Part shown: in pieces, positions 1-7,768 of the stretch
Numbering within the stretch: the stretch's first letter is position 1
How the letters are laid out: every line of letters begins with the position of its first letter
Source: Candidatus Omnitrophota bacterium
GTDB lineage: Bacteria; Omnitrophota; Gorgyraeia; Duberdicusellales; 4484-171
Direction: 5' to 3'
Assembly: GCA_021735655.1 (NCBI GenBank)
Contig: JAIPGM010000007.1
Span: 1 to 64,000 of the forward strand
DNA: 64,000 nt
Made by a program: the position numbers and the translations under genes
Notes under the pieces: model-generated
Seen by the model: only the letters and a program-made list of their open reading frames with translations
Database searches by the model: none
Told to the model about the DNA's origin: nothing

Positions 1-117
1 TCCTTTACGGGGTCAATTAAGCCCCAGAAAAACAATACAACCTATAACCTATCTACTCTGTGACTATCTATTTATTCTACTGATAATCCAGAGTTTTCAC
101 CAACTATCATTGAACAA

Positions 118-1110
118 TTATCGTATCATCTCCTTATTTTGTTTCTTTTTTAGAATTTGCTGTTCGATCCACGGATAAGTCTTTTTTAAACCCTCTTCTA
201 ATCTAGTTGAGGGAGCCCAACCCAGTATTTTTTTAATTAAGGTGTTGTCGGAATTACGCCCTCTAACACCTTGAGGTTTTGAAATGTCATATTCTTTCAT
301 AATCTTCTTACCAGAAATTCTAATAACCATATCAGTTAACTCATCAATGGTAACCAATTCATCAGAACCAACATTCAAAGGGTGTATATAATCTGATTCC
401 ATTAGTCGGCAAACACCTTCTAAACAATCATCAATATAGCAAAAAGACCGCGTTTGCTTACCATCGCCCCAAATATCAATGGTGCCCAAATTTTCAGCCA
501 TGATGATTTTTCGACACAAAGCAGCCGGTGCCTTCTCTCTGCCACCATCCCAAGTTCCATAAGGGCCAAATATATTGTGGAATCGTACAACCCGCGTATC
601 CAGTTTATAATCTTTACGATAAGCTTCGCAAAGTATCTCGGAAAATAACTTCTCCCAGCCATAAAATTGATCAGGTTGAGCCGGGTAGGCGTCTTCTTCC
701 TTTAAAGCGGTAACTTTTGAATCGAGTTGTTTGTATTCCGGATAAATACAAGCTGAAGAACTAAACATGAAGCGTTCAATCTTATTCTCTACAGAAGCCT
801 GAAGCATATTTATATTAATTAAACCACTATTATGCATAATATCAGCACCAACAGTCCCGATATAGCCAATACCACCCATGTCAGCCGCAAAATTAAAAAC
901 ATACTCAATATCCTTAGTGGCCTTAAGGCAACTATCGAGATCCCTTAGATCCAAAGTTAATTTTTCTGAATAATACCTATCGGGCATATAATCATCCCAC
1001 TTAATATCAACTACTCTTACAAAGACACCTTCTTCGTAGAGACGCTTAGCTAGATGAGATCCAATAAACCCCCCAGCTCCGGTTACTAAGACTTTTTTAT
1101 TTTGCACCAC
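118..1110 (-). CDS. GDP-mannose 3,5-epimerase-like NAD-dependent sugar epimerase (SDR family)
   Basis: 330 aa with N-terminal Rossmann motif VLVTGAGGFIGSH. Several blocks match my recollection of GDP-mannose 3,5-epimerase: FNFAADMGG, SSACIYPEYKQL, RFHNIFGPYGTWDGGREKAPAALCRK, GDGKQTRSF, GVRGRNSDN. The start overlaps the upstream regulator gene by 14 nt. Confidence 0.7.
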   Translation of the reverse strand: MVQNKKVLVTGAGGFIGSHLAKRLYEEGVFVRVVDIKWDDYMPDRYYSEKLTLDLRDLDSCLKATKDIEYVFNFAADMGGIGYIGTVGADIMHNSGLININMLQASVENKIERFMFSSSACIYPEYKQLDSKVTALKEEDAYPAQPDQFYGWEKLFSEILCEAYRKDYKLDTRVVRFHNIFGPYGTWDGGREKAPAALCRKIIMAENLGTIDIWGDGKQTRSFCYIDDCLEGVCRLMESDYIHPLNVGSDELVTIDELTDMVIRISGKKIMKEYDISKPQGVRGRNSDNTLIKKILGWAPSTRLEEGLKKTYPWIEQQILKKKQNKEMIR

Positions 1111-1519
1111 TTTTTTCTCCTTTTACTTGATAGAATAACTCATTTTTATTTTCTAAATTAACTTCTGTTTTTTCGCCATTGTTTTTTAGTTGGTCTTGAA
1201 GTTCAACCCACTCATTTCGGATATGGTTATATTCAATTTCTTTTTTCTTTAGAAAATGATACATAAGGTGCACTTTTTCCTCTAGGCCTTTTTTAGTGAG
1301 GATATACCTTACCTTTCCTAACTTTCCGGGATTTTTGGAAAAGTTCATCGCTTTTATCAGATTTTTTTTGATCAGGGATTTTAAAAGATAATTGGTTTTA
1401 CCCAAAGAAATATCTAAATAAGAAGATACATCTCTCTGAGTCAAATTATCTCCTGAGGATAGAAGACGAAGGACATTGAAAATGTCCTCTTTCAAGGTGT
1501 GTTTATCTATCTTTTCCAT
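1097..1519 (-). CDS. MarR-family winged-helix transcriptional regulator, EPS-associated subtype
   Basis: 140 aa. HTH segment LTQRDVSSYLDISLGKTNYLLKSLIKKNLIK followed by wing KVRYILTKKGLEEK. The SLGKxNY signature matches the EPS-associated MarR subfamily. Its own promoter-operator module lies immediately upstream. Confidence 0.6.
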   Translation of the reverse strand: MEKIDKHTLKEDIFNVLRLLSSGDNLTQRDVSSYLDISLGKTNYLLKSLIKKNLIKAMNFSKNPGKLGKVRYILTKKGLEEKVHLMYHFLKKKEIEYNHIRNEWVELQDQLKNNGEKTEVNLENKNELFYQVKGEKSGAK

Positions 1520-1578
1520 TAATTATATAACCCGTTAAGAAAACTGAATAAGTATAAGTAAAACAGGACTTATTCTAT

Positions 1579-1623
1579 GTTCATCAATTGAACATATTAT
1601 AAACCTTGGCCTATATATGTCAA
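1579..1623 (-). promoter_or_regulatory. sigma70-like promoter (TTGACA-N16-TATAAT) with overlapping palindromic operator GTTCA-N5-TGAAC (copy 1)
   Basis: Minus-strand reading: GTTGACATATATAGGCCAAGGTTTATAATATGTTCAATTGATGAAC. The -35 is at 1623..1618, the -10 at 1601..1596 and the palindrome at 1593..1579. It is near-identical to a second copy at 5946..5991. Confidence 0.6.
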
Positions 1624-1743
1624 CAGCTTTTATGGGAATTGAATGACTAAAGATATCTGGGGCTTAGATGCATAAACCCTTGTCAATAAACTAGTTAGAT
1701 ATTTAAATTTAAATTAGCAAAATTACACTTGTCTATTTAAGGC

Positions 1744-3321
1744 TTAATTAGTCGTGTTGCTCTTAGCTTTTTTTCGATAAAGATAGCCTAAAGGACCACG
1801 GTCATGAAAGCGACTTTTAAAATGAAGGGCTGAAATAATCTTCGGTATTATTGTTTTTTCCAAATCAGAATTAAACTCATAAACTAACCGTGAAATCTTA
1901 GACAAAGCATATATCATCGTTCTTTTGATTCGCCCCGGAGAGGTAGATAGTAAATTACGCTTTCCAATTAGAAAAGCCATAGTACCTACTTTTTTCTTGT
2001 ACGCTCTAGTATAAGGGAAAAAAACTTCTTCCCAAATTAAGGTATCATCATAAAGCATACGTTGATAAAAAGTGCTATGTTTATAAGGATTATCGGCGTT
2101 CTGATGAATCTGTAAACCGTAGTTTTGATAGTCTTCTTTTAGCCACCAATCTTTAAAACCATATTGCTCTTTATAGGTCTCATAAATTATAGTGCCAGGA
2201 TAAGGTACGATAGCACCGGAAACCTGATAAATATGAACTTGATCAAAATGCCTTTTAATATATTTAATATTATTAACAACTGCCAATTCATCTTCCCAAG
2301 GAAAGCCAGTCATCAGATTGACATAAATACGAAATCCTAATTCAGCTGAACAATCAACTGCCTTATGGGCTTGCCCCAAAGTAATACCTTTACGAATTCT
2401 TTTTAAAGTTTCAGAATCTCCACTTTCAATCCCATAGCTAACCATATAACAACCAGCTTCCTTCATCGTTGATAACATTTCAGAATCAACGATATTGGCT
2501 CGAGTTGAACAACACCAAGCTATATCCAACTTGTTATCCTTTAAGGACTGGCAGAAATCTCGGACATATTTTTTATTAAAAGTAAAGGTATCATCAGCAA
2601 TAACAAAAGACTTAATATTATGAGCGTCTTTTCGATGTTTAATCTCTCTAATTACCTCATCGACCGGATGATACCTAATTTTTTGACCAAAGATAGCCCG
2701 ATCACAAAAAGTACAGCCGGCCGGACAACCCCTTGAACAATAAATACGATGAAAACCTTTTAGCAATCCCATGGAAGTACGAAAACGCTCTTGATCAAAA
2801 CAACTAAAATCCAATTTTGGTAAGTCGTTGAGATTAGCTATATACTCGCGTGAAGGATTATGCACTACACATCCTTTAGGATCTTTAAAACTAATTCCTT
2901 TTATTGATTCTAAAGATAGGCCTCTAGCCCCGCTCCAAAAATCACATAATTCTGAAAGGGTTATCTCGCCTTCGTTACGGACTACAATATCTACTCCATT
3001 ATCGAGTGCCTCATCAGGGCATGAAGTAGCATGCGGACCACCAGCAATTACAGTTAACCCTGGTTTCTTAATTCGTTTAATAGTTTTATAAACATCTGGG
3101 ACGCGATAAGTAGAAAGGTGAAAACCGACAAAGGTTGGTTGATAAACCTCAGTTGCCTCTGCCAAATCGTCCCATCCCAAAAAATTATTAAAAGAATTAA
3201 CAATAGCTTTGACCTCATAACCTTTTTCTTTCAGAACTGATGATAGGTAGGCAAAACCAGTTGGCATTTCCGAAATCGGATTGGGAAAAATTAAAATGAA
3301 CTTCTTAGCTTTAGTTAACAT
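1744..3321 (-). CDS. B12-binding domain radical SAM protein (class B radical SAM, methyltransferase-like)
   Basis: 525 aa. The N-terminal cobalamin-binding fold is glycine-rich (TVIAGGPHATSCPDEAL). The radical SAM cluster motif CPAGCTFC (CxxxCxxC) lies in RIYCSRGCPAGCTFCDRA. Confidence 0.75.
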   Translation of the reverse strand: MLTKAKKFILIFPNPISEMPTGFAYLSSVLKEKGYEVKAIVNSFNNFLGWDDLAEATEVYQPTFVGFHLSTYRVPDVYKTIKRIKKPGLTVIAGGPHATSCPDEALDNGVDIVVRNEGEITLSELCDFWSGARGLSLESIKGISFKDPKGCVVHNPSREYIANLNDLPKLDFSCFDQERFRTSMGLLKGFHRIYCSRGCPAGCTFCDRAIFGQKIRYHPVDEVIREIKHRKDAHNIKSFVIADDTFTFNKKYVRDFCQSLKDNKLDIAWCCSTRANIVDSEMLSTMKEAGCYMVSYGIESGDSETLKRIRKGITLGQAHKAVDCSAELGFRIYVNLMTGFPWEDELAVVNNIKYIKRHFDQVHIYQVSGAIVPYPGTIIYETYKEQYGFKDWWLKEDYQNYGLQIHQNADNPYKHSTFYQRMLYDDTLIWEEVFFPYTRAYKKKVGTMAFLIGKRNLLSTSPGRIKRTMIYALSKISRLVYEFNSDLEKTIIPKIISALHFKSRFHDRGPLGYLYRKKAKSNTTN

Positions 3322-3357
3322 ATATCTTTTCTCTCATTTAAAAGTTTATATTTTAAA

Positions 3358-3386
3358 ATCATAACAGGGCTGGTTCCAAAAGTCAA
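3358..3386 (-). promoter_or_regulatory. putative sigma70 promoter for the radical SAM gene (TTGACT-N17-TATGAT)
   Basis: Minus-strand reading: TTGACTTTTGGAACCAGCCCTGTTATGAT, about 40 nt upstream of the ATG at 3321. It carries no GTTCA-N5-TGAAC operator. Confidence 0.3.
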
Positions 3387-3518
3387 TTAGCTTTCTTAAG
3401 CGAAAGACTCACCCTCATCATTAATAAGTTTAAATATTTTTTGCCCTTAACTAAAATTGACCCTCATCTCAAAGTAGGATGCTTTTTACTTAATTGAGGC
3501 TGAAAAAATTATCCATAG

Positions 3519-3677
3519 GTTAAAACAAGGTATAAATAAAGGGCGTCACGGCTGAACTTTCAGTAAAAACAACTAAAACCCCTAATAATAGTAAGATAAT
3601 AACTATTGGCAGAAGCCACCACTTCTTACGAAGTCTTATAAAACTCCAAAACTCCTTTAAAATTGTCAACTTACTCA
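3519..3677 (-). CDS. SxtK-like / DUF5989-family small membrane protein (52 aa); not in ORF track
   Basis: Translation: MSKLTILKEFWSFIRLRKKWWLLPIVIILLLLGVLVVFTESSAVTPFIYTLF. The RBS AAGGAG lies 7 nt upstream of the ATG. The RKKWWLLPI and PFIYTLF signatures match the family that recurrently follows SxtJ and carbamoyltransferase genes. Confidence 0.65.
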
Positions 3678-3689
3678 TGTTTGTCTCCT

Positions 3690-4103
3690 TTAAAACTGAT
3701 TCTCATAGTATTTTTTATCTAAATCAGCCTCAGGCTTAAGAATCCAATAGCTATCTCTTTTTTGGTTAAATTCTGAATCCAAAAACTTTTTACCGAATAA
3801 TCGAGAAAAAACCGCAATCGGAGTAACCACCAAATAAAATAAAATAGATAAAATTAATCCGGTCAAAGCCCAACTGACAATAATGAATAGAGCTCTTAAA
3901 ATCTTATGTAATGGTTTCAAAGCTAAAGGAAAAATAAACGAGAATCCAAAAAGAAAAAACGAAACTACAAAAAACTGAGGGTAAAAAATTCCTTTGCGCC
4001 ATAAAAATAATAAACCCCACAAAATAAAAACTACGCTTAAAGTTAAGCCAAACCTAGCGAGTTCCCTTTTGTCGCTTTTTATGCCTTTTATTTCTTCAAT
4101 CAT
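3690..4103 (-). CDS. SxtJ-like small membrane protein
   Basis: 137 aa with several TM helices. The pattern RFGLTLSVVFILWGL...YLVVTPIAVFSRLFGKKFLD resembles SxtJ-family proteins. It sits 3 nt downstream of the carbamoyltransferase and upstream of the SxtK-like ORF, the same order as sxtI-J-K. Confidence 0.6.
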   Translation of the reverse strand: MIEEIKGIKSDKRELARFGLTLSVVFILWGLLFLWRKGIFYPQFFVVSFFLFGFSFIFPLALKPLHKILRALFIIVSWALTGLILSILFYLVVTPIAVFSRLFGKKFLDSEFNQKRDSYWILKPEADLDKKYYENQF

Positions 4104-4105
4104 AA

Positions 4106-5923
4106 TTAGTCCAACCCAAACTCTCTAAGCCAAGTAATATCTTTATCTAAAGGCTTTTGTTCTTTTTTCTCCAACAAATAGTTTCCGACAATAAGATAGT
4201 CCATATTAGTACACATAAAACACAAATAGGCATCTTCGGGGGTGCAAACTATCGGCTCACCACGCACATTAAAGGAAGTATTAATGATAACTGGACAACC
4301 ATACTTTTGATCCATTTTCCTTAATAACCGGTAATACAAAGGATTATCCTCCTCTTCCACGGTCTGAACCCTTGCTGAATAATCCACATGAGTAACTGCC
4401 GGAATTTCTGAACGCTCAATTTGCAATTGATCCAAACCAGAAAGACTCTCTTGCTCTTTAGTTATTGATTTTCGAACTCTCTGGCTAACCGGAGCAACCA
4501 AAAGCATATAGGGACTTTCGACTTCCAGCTCAAAGTAATCAGAAGCCTTCTCTTTAGTTACTGAAGGCGCAAAAGACCTAAAAGGCTCCCGAAACTTTAT
4601 TTTAAGGTTTATTATCTCCTGCATCTTGGCTGAACGAGCATCGCCAAGAATAGAGCGGTTGCCCAAAGCCCGGGGTCCAAACTCCATTCTCCCTTGAAAC
4701 CAACCGATTACTTTACCAGCGGCAATTAAATCAGCTACTTTTTCGGGAATTTCATCATCATTCAAAAAAGTGTAAGGGACATTATTGCTCTTTAAATACT
4801 CTTCAATACAATCCCTATCAAAGCTAGGCCCCAAATAAGAACCTTGCTGAAAGTCTTTTTTCCGATCAACTTCTCTTTTATTTCCTAGACATTGATACCA
4901 GGCAAACAAGGCTGCCCCCAAGGCGCCTCCGGCGTCTCCGGCAGCCGGCTGGATCCAAATATTTTTAAAGTTGCTTTCGCGTAAAATTCGACCGTTAGCA
5001 ACACAATTTAAAGCTACACCTCCGGCTAAACAAAGATTTTCCTGATTAGTCTGTTGATATAGATGATTGACCATGCGTAACATTACCTCTTCAGTTACCG
5101 CCTGAATAGATGCTGCTAAATCCATATGTTCTTGACTAAATTTAGACTCTGGTTTACGAGGCTCTTGGCCAAATAACCTATGAAAACGGCGGTTAGTCAT
5201 AGTCAAACCAAAGCAATAGTTAAAATAGTTCATATTTAATTTAAAGGAACCATCTTCCTTTAAATCGATCAATTCACGAAATATCAACTCCTTATATTTA
5301 GGCTCACCATAGGGAGCTAAGCCCATAAGTTTATACTCTCCGGAATTAACTTTAAACCCAAGATAGTAAGTAAAAGCTGAATAAAGTAATCCTAAAGAAT
5401 GCGGGAAATGAATTTCAGCTAAAATCTTTATCTGGTTATCTTTACCAACTCCATAACTAGCCGTAGCCCACTCACCTACCCCATCAATGGTTAAAAAAGC
5501 AGCTTTCGAAAAAGGTGAAGCGAAAAATGCCGAAGCAGCATGTGACTGATGATGTTCAGTAAAAATAATTTTTCCTTTATATTTAAGTTGACTACCGATA
5601 AAGTCCTTTATCCAAAGCTTTTGTTTTATCCATAAAGGCATTGCTTTTAAAAAAGAGCTAATCCCTCTCGGAGCATAGGCTAAGTAGGTTTCTAAAATAC
5701 GCTCAAATTTAATAAAAGGTTTATCGTAGAAAGCAACTAAATCTAATTCCTTAGAAGTAAGCCCACTATTCTCTAGGCAGTAATTAATGGCATTTTTAGG
5801 AAAGGAAGAATCATGTTTTTTGCGGCTGAATCTTTCTTCTTGGACAGCTGAAACTATTTGCCCGTCTTGGATGAGACAGGCGGCACTATCATGATAAAAG
5901 GCAGAAATTCCTAGAATATTCAT
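4106..5923 (-). CDS. NodU/CmcH-family carbamoyltransferase
   Basis: 605 aa. The N-terminal ILGISAFYHDSAACLIQDGQIVSAVQEERFSRKKHD is typical of the NodU/CmcH/SxtI family, and the protein has a C-terminal carbamoyltransferase domain. Confidence 0.85.
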   Translation of the reverse strand: MNILGISAFYHDSAACLIQDGQIVSAVQEERFSRKKHDSSFPKNAINYCLENSGLTSKELDLVAFYDKPFIKFERILETYLAYAPRGISSFLKAMPLWIKQKLWIKDFIGSQLKYKGKIIFTEHHQSHAASAFFASPFSKAAFLTIDGVGEWATASYGVGKDNQIKILAEIHFPHSLGLLYSAFTYYLGFKVNSGEYKLMGLAPYGEPKYKELIFRELIDLKEDGSFKLNMNYFNYCFGLTMTNRRFHRLFGQEPRKPESKFSQEHMDLAASIQAVTEEVMLRMVNHLYQQTNQENLCLAGGVALNCVANGRILRESNFKNIWIQPAAGDAGGALGAALFAWYQCLGNKREVDRKKDFQQGSYLGPSFDRDCIEEYLKSNNVPYTFLNDDEIPEKVADLIAAGKVIGWFQGRMEFGPRALGNRSILGDARSAKMQEIINLKIKFREPFRSFAPSVTKEKASDYFELEVESPYMLLVAPVSQRVRKSITKEQESLSGLDQLQIERSEIPAVTHVDYSARVQTVEEEDNPLYYRLLRKMDQKYGCPVIINTSFNVRGEPIVCTPEDAYLCFMCTNMDYLIVGNYLLEKKEQKPLDKDITWLREFGLD

Positions 5924-5945
5924 AAATAATTCATCTAGCGACTCT

Positions 5946-5991
5946 GTTCAATTGATGAACAATATTATAGATTCTTACCTATATATGTCAA
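5946..5991 (-). promoter_or_regulatory. sigma70-like promoter (TTGACA-N16-TATAAT) with overlapping palindromic operator GTTCA-N5-TGAAC (copy 2)
   Basis: Minus-strand reading: GGTTGACATATATAGGTAAGAATCTATAATATTGTTCATCAATTGAAC. The -35 is at 5991..5986, the -10 at 5969..5964 and the palindrome at 5960..5946. The carbamoyltransferase ATG is about 25 nt downstream. Confidence 0.6.
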
Positions 5992-6014
5992 CCCTTTTAA
6001 TAGCAGTTATAGAA

Positions 6015-6905
6015 TCAAAAACGAAGGGTTATTCCTGAGCCGAAATAGAGGTCTTGATGAGTTTTCTTGATTTGAATAAAATACTCTAACTCGTTTTCAG
6101 TAAACAGCTTATGATTAAAAGTAAGGGCTAAGCCCAATGATTTATCCTGAACGTCACGGAGACTAAAAACTAAATCCTTATTTTTAGCTATTTTAACCTT
6201 TGCTCCAAGATAGACTTTTTTTAACTGACCAGACCCATAGTCAACAATGAAGCTTAAACCCAATTTACGGCTAAAGTTCCAGCGGCCGTATAGACTAATA
6301 ATCTTTTCCCTTTTTAAATCACCCACCCCAATCCCTAAACGGTATTTTATGGCTCCCTTTTTAGGATAAATGTTAGGCGATTCAACCTGAACTTTAAAAT
6401 TAAAAACACTCCCTCGGCCTCCCGATAAAATATACTTAAGTCTATTACGTTCGTTAATCTGCCAAAATCCATCAAAAACAATAGACTCTTTTACCCTCTT
6501 TTTTGTCTTAAGTTTTGCCTTCTCATAAGAGTAAACTATTTTCTGCTGCTTGTTTAACTGCCAAATACCACCGAAAGTAAGCGTCTCGGGATTTCGCTTT
6601 CTTTTAACTTCAAAGCTAAGACGATTAAATTTATCAGCCCGCCACAAGCCCTTCAACTTCAAAAAAGAAACTATCTGCTTATTCTTCTCTGACTTGGTTT
6701 TAACTTCAAAGGTTATAAAATCAGCTCCGGCCTCAGTAATCTTTCCCTTTAGAGTTAGCTTATTATCTATGGAACTCTTATCTTCCTCGGCCTTAAAAAC
6801 TAATTCATGGTTTGAAGTTAGCTTCCAACGACCATCAAAAGCAGAATTTCCAATAAACAAAAGATTATCCTTATCTAAAGAAAGTTTTGATTTAGTTTTA
6901 CTCAT
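6015..6905 (-). CDS. hypothetical protein with five Trp-containing beta-type repeats
   Basis: 296 aa, lysine-rich, no obvious signal peptide. The motif G-x-W-x-[LI]-x4-[KR]-[LI]-x-[FY] recurs five times: DGRWKLTSNHELVF, KGLWRADKFNRLSF, GGIWQLNKQQKIVY, DGFWQINERNRLKY, YGRWNFSRKLGLSF. Confidence 0.4.
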   Translation of the reverse strand: MSKTKSKLSLDKDNLLFIGNSAFDGRWKLTSNHELVFKAEEDKSSIDNKLTLKGKITEAGADFITFEVKTKSEKNKQIVSFLKLKGLWRADKFNRLSFEVKRKRNPETLTFGGIWQLNKQQKIVYSYEKAKLKTKKRVKESIVFDGFWQINERNRLKYILSGGRGSVFNFKVQVESPNIYPKKGAIKYRLGIGVGDLKREKIISLYGRWNFSRKLGLSFIVDYGSGQLKKVYLGAKVKIAKNKDLVFSLRDVQDKSLGLALTFNHKLFTENELEYFIQIKKTHQDLYFGSGITLRF

Positions 6906-6961
6906 CTTAGCTAACTAAAATACCTTAATCTAACTAAATTTGGTTTGATTTAATTAATTGA

Positions 6962-7768
6962 CTATAACTTACTATTTTCCAATAGGTTATGTAAAAGGGT
7001 CCTATTGGAGGCGCAGATAAATCCGGGGTTTTTCAAGCTTTCCTTGTTGTAACTAAAAGGAGTCCCGTCTAGGTTAGCAACAACTGCTCCTGAAGCCTCA
7101 GCTATCGCTTGTCCAGCAGCCGTATCCCACTCCATAGTTGGACCACTACGCAAATATAAATCAGCTTGGCCTTCGGCAACTCGGCAAAATTTTAGTGAAC
7201 TTCCAGCATGAATAACAACAGGATTAGTAAATGAAGAAATCATTCTATCCTCTTCCTTGCTACTATGCGAACGGCTTCTAACCACGGTTATTTTATCAAG
7301 CAAAGGTTTCCTGGTTCTGATTGGTTTAGATTTACCGCCCTTATCTTGCCTAAAAGCTCCTTTGGATTTTAAGCCAAAATATAGTTGATCATAAGCCGGT
7401 AGAACAACTACCCCAAAAACAGGAATGGTTTTTTCAATTAAAGCAATATTAACCGTAAACTCGCCGTTTTTTTGGATAAACTCTTTAGTCCCGTCCAAAG
7501 GATCAACCAACCAAAAACTATCCCAACCGCTTCTTTGAGAAAAAGGTATTTCTTTAGCCTCTTCTGAAATAATCGGAATCTCAGGAAAAGCTTCTTTTAA
7601 ACCAGCGGCGATTACTTCTTGAGCTAGTCGGTCAGCTAAAGTTAAAGGGCTATTATCTTTTTTTAAATTAACTTCGAAATCTGAAGATTTGTATACTTCT
7701 ACTACTCTTTGTGAGGCAAGTGAGGCTATCTCGAGGATTTTTTCAATCTGAGAATCAGAAAAGTTCAT
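6962..7768 (-). CDS. cysQ: 3'(2'),5'-bisphosphate nucleotidase (inositol monophosphatase family)
   Basis: 268 aa with IMPase motifs WLVDPLDGTKEF and WDTAAG. It is adjacent to cysC and sat. Confidence 0.75.
   Translation of the reverse strand: MNFSDSQIEKILEIASLASQRVVEVYKSSDFEVNLKKDNSPLTLADRLAQEVIAAGLKEAFPEIPIISEEAKEIPFSQRSGWDSFWLVDPLDGTKEFIQKNGEFTVNIALIEKTIPVFGVVVLPAYDQLYFGLKSKGAFRQDKGGKSKPIRTRKPLLDKITVVRSRSHSSKEEDRMISSFTNPVVIHAGSSLKFCRVAEGQADLYLRSGPTMEWDTAAGQAIAEASGAVVANLDGTPFSYNKESLKNPGFICASNRTLLHNLLENSKL

Follow-up and report, generated by a model that had tools for sequence, protein, structure and literature searches.

A 64,000-nucleotide stretch of a Candidatus Omnitrophota bacterium genome (assembly GCA_021735655.1, contig JAIPGM010000007.1, positions 1 to 64,000; hereafter the window, to whose positions all coordinates refer unless another locus is named) carries the same regulatory element twice, once in front of a gene for a MarR_EPS (TIGR04176) regulator, here called marR, and once in front of a carbamoyltransferase gene. 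In each case a perfect consensus σ70 promoter is followed almost immediately by the palindrome TGTTCA-N5-TGAACA. Judged from sequence comparisons, this palindrome is very probably the binding site of the MarR_EPS regulator itself, and we consider it likely that this regulator, as a dimer, represses transcription from its own promoter and also, in this genome, from that of a captured cassette. The initial annotation, made from the window's letters, had proposed a repressor operator over the predicted start of the two consensus promoters; the comparisons with orthologous loci, with the regulator family at large and with an independent Omnitrophota locus (L212), which are described below, all support this proposal.

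MarR_EPS is annotated in many exopolysaccharide loci, and the literature that we searched describes no operator, target gene or structure for it. Searches for a TGTTCA/TGAACA operator or for 'EPS-associated MarR' returned nothing relevant (Geobacter papers mention PEP-CTERM proteins only), and neither the half-site TGTTCA nor the 6-5-6 geometry was found described there. The present analysis supplies a precise, highly conserved candidate operator for the family, together with a defined promoter architecture and first candidate targets (carbamoyltransferase/SxtJ/DUF5989, epimerases, gmd and cysC), in an uncultured phylum whose gene regulation is essentially unstudied. Since the promoters conform to the σ70 consensus, the circuit is directly testable in E. 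coli.

Anatomy of the two promoter-palindrome copies

In both copies the order is TTGACA, 16 nt, TATAAT, 1-2 nt, TGTTCA-N5-TGAACA (minus strand, 1578-1624 and 5945-5992). The parts are listed here, with the promoter boxes read on the minus strand.

1610..1624, minus strand: 15-mer GTTGACATATATAGG of copy 1, holding the −35 TTGACA at 1618-1623
1596..1601, minus strand: −10 TATAAT of copy 1, with a 16-nt spacer to the −35; 12/12 consensus
1578..1594, no strand assigned: palindrome TGTTCAATTGATGAACA of copy 1 (TGTTCA-ATTGA-TGAACA in minus-strand reading), the predicted MarR_EPS operator over the predicted transcription start
5978..5992, minus strand: 15-mer GTTGACATATATAGG of copy 2, holding the −35 TTGACA at 5986-5991
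5964..5969, minus strand: −10 TATAAT of copy 2, with a 16-nt spacer to the −35; 12/12 consensus
5945..5961, no strand assigned: palindrome TGTTCATCAATTGAACA of copy 2 (TGTTCA-TCAAT-TGAACA in minus-strand reading), the 17-bp duplex of copy 1, flipped

The copies are separated by 4368 nt, start to start. The palindrome begins 1 nt after the −10 in copy 1 and 2 nt after it in copy 2, and TGTTCATCAATTGAACA is found on the plus strand in copy 1 and on the minus strand in copy 2, the two 17-mers being exact reverse complements. They are the only 12/12 σ70 consensus promoters and the only GTTC-N7-GAAC dyads in the 64 kb; dinucleotide shuffles predict 0.01 exact palindromes, and none of 100 shuffles reached the two observed. 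There is no third copy of the 15-mer in the window, where the closest match has 2 mismatches. With 17 bp, and with half-site centres 11 bp apart, the dyad falls in the range of 16-20 bp with half-sites one helical turn apart. The predicted transcription starts lie inside the palindromes (at about 1588-1590 in copy 1 and 5955-5957 in copy 2), and neither transcript would be leaderless, as the ATG follows the predicted start by ~70 nt in copy 1 and by ~35 nt in copy 2; the distance from the 3' end of the copy 2 palindrome to the ATG of the carbamoyltransferase is 21 nt. Only the functional boxes are identical between the copies: there are 5 differences among the 8 spacer positions, and the centre has the opposite orientation. 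A diverged spacer between perfect boxes suggests that both copies are under selection, rather than being the outcome of a fresh duplication.

Window scans bear out most of what had been annotated at the two sites, namely two minus-strand copies ~4.3 kb apart (one end coordinate, of the copy 1 15-mer, was 1 nt short), each with an exact 15-mer containing a consensus −35, a 16-nt spacer and a consensus TATAAT. The inverted repeat had been given as GTTCA-N5-TGAAC at 2-3 nt from the −10; the palindrome stands, and its arms are in fact 6 nt long (TGTTCA/TGAACA) and start 1-2 nt after the −10. The reverse-complementary centres were also observed correctly, but they are not a functional requirement; across the family the centre varies freely, except for the usual regulator ATG.

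Association of the palindrome with MarR_EPS genes

The strongest indication of what the palindrome is for comes from the regulator family as a whole. We collected 80 metagenome loci by similarity to a 27-protein MarR_EPS alignment, without using the motif; the relatives sampled come mostly from Omnitrophota. A perfect palindrome occurs within −200..+30 of the gene start in 66 of these loci, and one with a single mismatch in 8 more; the 379,840 nt of these loci contain 74 perfect sites in total, compared with 0.036 expected from base composition. As a phylogenetic footprint, the site is present in 71/80 of the protein-selected loci (at least one perfect palindrome in each) and in 3/3 loci orthologous to that of the window, with invariant arms and a variable centre. 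In 56 loci the open reading frame (ORF) that starts at palindrome positions 7-9 (TGTTCA ATG NNT GAA CA) is the regulator itself. For the 53 sites with enough upstream sequence, a −10-like hexamer was found 7-9 nt before the ATG in 48 and a −35 in 45.

A scan in the reverse direction, with TATAAT-N1-2-TGTTCA-N5-TGAACA against one genome per species (185,579 species), returned a MarR_EPS-like gene directly behind the pattern in 57 of 123 cases, among the matches listed. Within this same list the regulator-linked matches are overwhelmingly from Omnitrophota or from metagenome-assembled genomes (MAGs) labelled Planctomycetia, with others from Gammaproteobacteria, Burkholderiaceae, Nitrospinota and Auribacterota, while the matches that lack a regulator gene are mainly in AT-rich or unrelated taxa and mainly without a −35, as one would expect of chance matches. 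The palindrome travels with the MarR_EPS gene.

The geometry has a further consequence, in that most MarR_EPS genes seem to have no leader, or almost none, their start codon being inside the palindrome. This embedding explains the characteristic N-termini of the family (MNEH, MIEQ, MDEH, MFEQ), and makes the family a predicted case of a protein whose first four codons are set by the very DNA site to which it binds. Clades whose centre holds no ATG (that of the window, and the L140/L144 group) nevertheless keep both arms beside the −10, which argues that the arms are conserved for a reason at the DNA level and not merely as codons. Palindromes that no longer stand behind a promoter decay (for example in L162 and L192). 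Co-variation between recognition helix and half-site gave no signal: L162, L169, L192, L200, L206 and L208 have degenerate palindromes, yet all keep the helix motif SLGKTNYL. This lack of signal is accounted for by the position of marR, which in the loci inspected (L162, L192 and L200) is no longer behind its own promoter.

In the protein, the string S-x-G-K-T-N-Y-L is invariant across 27 diverse MarR_EPS members, and in the AlphaFold2 (AF2) model of the window's regulator (pLDDT 80.8) SLGKTNYL forms the third helix of a winged helix-turn-helix, the remainder consisting of a single helix at the N-terminus, a long one at the C-terminus and a disordered tail. The top 50 Foldseek matches are all MarR-family or MarR-like winged-helix regulators (E about 4e-5, TM about 0.5), the best of them being MepR, AdcR, MexR, ZitR and FabT, so that the model points to a MarR-type winged helix-turn-helix fold. 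A sequence search of the PDB with the family profile found no significant relative (best E 0.08). In MarR-DNA complexes, a symmetric dimer places its recognition helices in successive major grooves; an invariant recognition helix together with invariant half-sites, 11 bp apart from centre to centre, fits this mode of binding.

We propose that the MarR_EPS dimer would put its two SLGKTNYL helices into the half-sites of TGTTCA-N5-TGAACA, whose centres are 11 bp apart. Since the site lies directly downstream of the −10, over the start of a σ70 promoter of maximal strength, a bound dimer would be expected to shut that promoter; we infer repression rather than activation, and an inducing signal presumably exists. 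In the ancestral arrangement, marR would have repressed itself along with the genes that share its transcript. The palindrome holds the regulator ATG in most family members, which would make the mRNA leaderless or nearly so and fix the first residues as M-x-E-H/Q; the clade of the window would have lost this ATG and gained a leader of ~70 nt, while keeping the arms.

Three further observations concern the distribution of the site. Tandem palindromes ~47 nt apart (TGTTCAATGAATGAACA...TTTTGTTCAATGA...) occur in L173 (about 1406-1470), L174 (about 4880-4945) and L106, and are a local duplication of a leaderless gene start. A second winged-helix family of about 190-200 aa (N-terminus MPKDTLNEREFELINIIG..NQRDLS, recognition helix LSLGMTN), which over 76 aa shares 38% identity with the regulator of the window, has the same promoter-palindrome module and probably shares the operator; its members are found in L013, L026, L048, L056, L060, L065, L075, L084, L086, L096 and L099, and, in reverse orientation, in L043 (5024-5614). 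In Bacteroidia MAGs (L015 at 1802, L082, L093), TATAAT-N2-TGTTCATAC(G/A/C)(A/T)TGAACA lies over the start of a gene for a conserved protein of ~203 aa (MNNKG.PDT..DP..) that does not resemble MarR; here the dyad may serve some unrelated purpose.

Cassette insertion at the marR promoter and candidate targets

The origin of the second copy can be read from three orthologous Omnitrophota loci of other assemblies (L002, L005, L008), whose regulators are 74-77% identical to that of the window. Their gene order is sat/cysC-(cysQ)-unknown protein-[about 140 nt]-marR-epimerase-rml genes, and none of the three has a carbamoyltransferase, SxtJ, DUF5989 or radical SAM gene at that position; the genes that flank the extra block of the window are true orthologues across the loci (66% and 58% identity). 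Upstream of marR all three have CATAAAAAGTGTTGACATATATAGG, TATAAT and both arms identical to those of the window, as well as the 15-mer GTTGACATATATAGG, with variation in the 8-nt spacer and in the centre (ATTAA, ATCGG, ATTGG, versus ATTGA in the window). By these comparisons, the 15-mer is specific to the clade of the window, and the palindrome is common to the whole family. In flank alignments, homology with the relatives is seen on the upstream side of copy 2, which matches their upstream flank, and in the downstream leader of copy 1, which matches their marR leader; a segment of ~70 bp, which begins ~20 nt before the −35 and runs to 3 nt beyond the palindrome, occurs in duplicate. Ancestral sequence on the outer side of each copy, combined with the doubled ~70 bp, indicates a cassette insertion with duplication: as far as the alignments go, ~4.3 kb were inserted in the window into what had been the promoter region of marR, with a copy of the duplicated promoter-operator on either side. 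Comparison of the spacers does not tell which copy is the original; the flanks alone are informative. No donor of the cassette can be named, the carbamoyltransferase homologues being all 74-77% identical across many phyla.

The genes and segments concerned are the following.

118..1110, minus strand: NAD-dependent epimerase/dehydratase; overlaps the marR stop codon, with the same overlap in L002, L005 and L008; 58% identical to the L005 orthologue
1097..1519, minus strand: MarR_EPS regulator, 140 aa; TIGR04176 at 94.7 bits versus a curated cutoff of 88; winged helix with SLGKTNYL
1520..1577, minus strand: marR leader, conserved within the clade; 4-codon mini-ORF and motif AACGGGTTATATA
1645..5941, minus strand: lineage-specific insertion of ~4.3 kb (carbamoyltransferase, SxtJ, DUF5989, radical SAM), bounded by ~70-bp duplicates at ~1575-1645 and ~5942-6012
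1744..3321, minus strand: B12-binding radical SAM enzyme; belongs to the inserted block and is absent from the orthologous loci
3520..3678, minus strand: DUF5989 (SxtK-like) protein, 52 aa; PF19451, 84 bits
3690..4103, minus strand: SxtJ-like membrane protein, 137 aa; 47% identical to the PF19588 protein of L211, with no direct Pfam match of its own
4106..5923, minus strand: carbamoyltransferase, 605 aa; first gene behind copy 2

All 67 ORFs of ≥100 aa in the gene series are on the minus strand. Upstream of copy 2 there is a gene for a 296-aa protein of no recognised family, and then the genes cysQ, cysC and sat for the synthesis of 3'-phosphoadenosine-5'-phosphosulfate (PAPS); at the other end, beyond the start of the window on the parent contig, the epimerase is followed by rmlA, rmlC and further sugar-nucleotide genes. 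With PAPS-synthesis genes, a DegT aminotransferase, epimerases, rmlA/rmlC and the carbamoyltransferase as neighbours, the setting is that of a surface-glycan or exopolysaccharide locus. The earlier labels of MarR-EPS regulator, carbamoyltransferase, SxtJ and SxtK-like DUF5989 protein hold, whereas the gene at 118-1110, which had been called a GDP-mannose 3,5-epimerase, can be assigned only to the NAD-dependent epimerase/dehydratase family.

A block of ~4.3 kb was thus inserted upstream of marR together with a duplication of the ~70-bp promoter-operator segment. In the arrangement that we propose, both units are under the control of these segments. Copy 2, in the ancestral position, would now drive the cassette. 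Copy 1 had been credited with the regulator and the overlapping epimerase gene, an assignment that we retain and extend, as this promoter probably drives marR, the epimerase and the rml genes that follow. The assignment of the carbamoyltransferase-SxtJ-SxtK genes to copy 2 is supported by the analogous module of L212, with the addition that the inserted block also includes the B12-radical SAM gene. Since both units stand behind the same promoter-operator, both would answer to the same repressor, and the duplication of this segment upon cassette insertion would be a route by which a regulon grows.

Some local details are recorded here. In the 198-nt gap between DUF5989 and the radical SAM gene (3322-3519), in which no terminator is predicted, there is an extended −10 promoter-like site (TTGACT-17-TATGAT, 3358-3386) that is weaker than copies 1 and 2; the radical SAM gene may be transcribed from copy 2 or from this local site. 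The marR leader (window 1520-1588, minus strand; about 9930-10000 in L002, L005 and L008) has a mini-ORF, (A/G)TG AAC A(G/T)A G(A/T)A TAA, which starts in the right arm and is possibly a relic of an ancestral leaderless start ATG-AAT-GAA-CA. The motif AACGGGTTATATA, directly before the marR ATG, occurs once in the window and in L002, and as a tandem pair in L005 and L008. The 296-aa protein (6015-6905, minus strand) has internal repeats and no Pfam or NCBIfam match; related Omnitrophota have it too, at 66% identity and in the same place beside the PAPS-synthesis genes, in a sulfated-glycan context.

Several loci suggest targets besides the regulator itself. In L212, from an independent Omnitrophota MAG, TTGACA-17-TATAAT-GT-TGTTCAATAGTTGAACA ends 25 nt before carbamoyltransferase-SxtJ genes, in a promoter that is otherwise unrelated in sequence to that of the window. 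A complete module likewise stands before other glycan genes: in L043 before an operon of two epimerases with a longer MarR_EPS-like regulator at its end, in L192 before gmd with marR behind it, and in L200 before cysC-x-marR. In L211 (2950-3000) another Omnitrophota carbamoyltransferase-SxtJ-DUF5989 cassette is accompanied by a gene for a 206-aa HTH_24 protein, which is preceded by TTGACA-N17-ATAAAA and, a few nt on, by CGTTCA-TTTTT-AGAACG, i.e. by the GTTC-N7-GAAC core with other outer bases.

Several MAGs have the module and marR in repeated copies, with HEPN/nucleotidyltransferase pairs, IS200/IS605 genes and ATPases in between. On contig JBDRMR010000012.1 of one Omnitrophota MAG, ~12 kb hold four perfect modules and five or more nearly identical MarR_EPS paralogues (L091 at 6847, L061 at 5299 and 6928, L090 at 821), both interleaved with HEPN/nucleotidyltransferase pairs, IS200/IS605-like genes and AAA ATPases; L164, L208 and L023 are similar. 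The region behind the module looks like a hotspot of insertion and duplication there. A far-reaching interpretation, which we hold to be improbable, is that the MarR_EPS promoter-operator-leaderless-start module is a portable capture-and-control platform of Omnitrophota surface-glycan loci, with cargo inserted time and again just downstream and the module regenerated. Carbamoyltransferase cassette, gmd, cysC, toxin-antitoxin pairs, insertion sequence (IS) elements and ATPases would be the cargo, each new arrival would be wired at once into the same repressor circuit, and the platform would be an integrase-free analogue of the integron expression platform, with the palindrome possibly promoting duplications.

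Alternative readings and known systems

Several observations weigh against the assignment of the palindrome to MarR_EPS as an operator of two units. The L212 locus ends before any marR gene. The carbamoyltransferases of L211 and L213 have no palindrome, which means that its control of the carbamoyltransferase cassette is not universal. The regulator has neither a cysteine nor an evident ligand-binding feature. In leaderless members, the conservation of the right arm could in part be a coding constraint (codons 2-4), but the left arm is non-coding and the clades with a leader keep both arms. Finally, the two strongest data sets fit either MarR_EPS or another factor that always controls MarR_EPS genes.

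This last point is the basis for an alternative in which a different, unlinked factor binds the palindrome and controls MarR_EPS and some glycan genes, while MarR_EPS recognises something else. The comparative data indeed tie the site to the promoters of MarR_EPS genes and not to a protein. The site accompanies the gene, however, through several phyla and very different neighbourhoods, as would be expected of a cis site and a trans factor with joint inheritance; the invariant arms have their counterpart in a recognition helix that is likewise invariant, and no second conserved regulator gene stands beside the sites. We regard this alternative as unlikely.

A somewhat smaller chance is given to copy 2 being a structural by-product of the insertion, maybe active as a promoter, with an operator that is not under selection and no real two-operon regulon. 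That the two copies flank a lineage-specific insertion, and that similar duplicated modules flank the unrelated cargo described above (HEPN/nucleotidyltransferase pairs, IS200/IS605 genes, ATPases), are what one would see in such a case. A by-product would not be expected to combine a diverged spacer and diverged flanks with a −35, a −10 and two arms that are all perfect; furthermore, L212 has the same palindrome in a non-homologous promoter before a carbamoyltransferase, and relic copies away from promoters (L162, L192) decay.

The repeated modules that bracket heterogeneous cargo in several MAGs, and the centre that is flipped between the window copies as after recombination between inverted arms, could also suggest that the palindrome is primarily a recombination or gene-capture site, similar to an att core, with the promoter context being secondary. 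Features of a site-specific recombination core or of an integron-like attachment site are missing at these loci: no recombinase gene is conserved beside the sites, the duplicated segment of ~70 bp includes the whole promoter and extends well beyond the palindrome instead of being bounded by it, and in most loci the site is single and keeps a constant distance from the −10. In addition, a 5-bp centre is unusual for the cores of tyrosine recombinases. On this balance we give the recombination-site reading little credence.

Still more doubtful is a role for the inverted repeat at the RNA level, as a 5'-terminal hairpin of the transcripts that controls stability or translation, rather than as a DNA site. 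A start upstream of the repeat would allow a hairpin of up to 8 bp (−12.9 kcal/mol, in a longer RNA), but the left arm, 1-2 nt after the −10, is upstream of any start from that promoter and cannot be in the mRNA of leaderless members, and the predicted transcripts fold no better than shuffles (z = +0.34 and +1.31). A known RNA element was rejected as well: Rfam gave no match for 1-7000 even with the threshold relaxed to E ≤ 1, and the predicted 5' untranslated regions fold like shuffled sequences. A generic dispersed repeat without regulatory meaning, such as a miniature inverted-repeat transposable element (MITE), can practically be dismissed, despite the exact 15-mer and the exact 17-mer common to the two copies, since there are just two copies in 64 kb and none in 9 kb of further contig, the similarity is confined to promoter boxes and arms with no terminal-repeat or target-duplication features, and copies stand at orthologous positions across species.

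Returning to the palindrome as a MarR_EPS operator, it can be compared with several known sites and circuits. The LexA 'Cheo box' of Gram-positive bacteria is GAAC-N4-GTTC, usually before genes of the lexA/recA type. The tetranucleotides GAAC and GTTC and the position over promoters are shared; the half-sites of the present site are unlike it in being in the opposite order, with GTTC-N7-GAAC spacing, and in their association with marR and glycan genes instead of lexA. The operator of Bacillus subtilis DeoR (SorC family), ATTGAACAAAATTTCAAT, contains TTGAACA and is likewise a repressor operator near a sugar-related promoter (PMC11229326). It differs in its geometry (TTGAA...TTCAA), in being bound by a SorC-family tetramer, in its position at −60 to −21, and in that the protein family is unrelated. 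Both the Cheo box and the DeoR operator were rejected as identities for the palindrome, given their different geometry.

A parallel in layout is phage lambda cI, which when transcribed from PRM is a leaderless autoregulated repressor gene. Most MarR_EPS start codons are similarly placed at or within about 2 nt of the predicted start, and the presumed operator overlaps the promoter. Unlike in lambda, the MarR_EPS start codon is inside the palindrome itself, so that the operator dictates codons 1-4; the two copies of the window, also unlike cI, have leaders (about 70 and 35 nt).

A further analogy is to the autoregulated repressors of the MarR family (E. coli MarR/marO, S. aureus MepR, P. aeruginosa MexR, OhrR, ZitR/AdcR), in which a palindromic operator of 16-20 bp lies over the −10/+1 region of the regulator's own promoter and of that of the target operon. 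The predicted small winged-helix dimer is of the same kind, and by this analogy the present arrangement would be, in function, a classical autoregulated MarR-type repressor-operator pair with an unsurprising mechanism. MarR_EPS differs from these repressors in having no detectable sequence relative with a solved structure, a shorter architecture and no evident ligand or redox sensor, and in its candidate targets, which are genes of glycan modification instead of efflux or stress genes.

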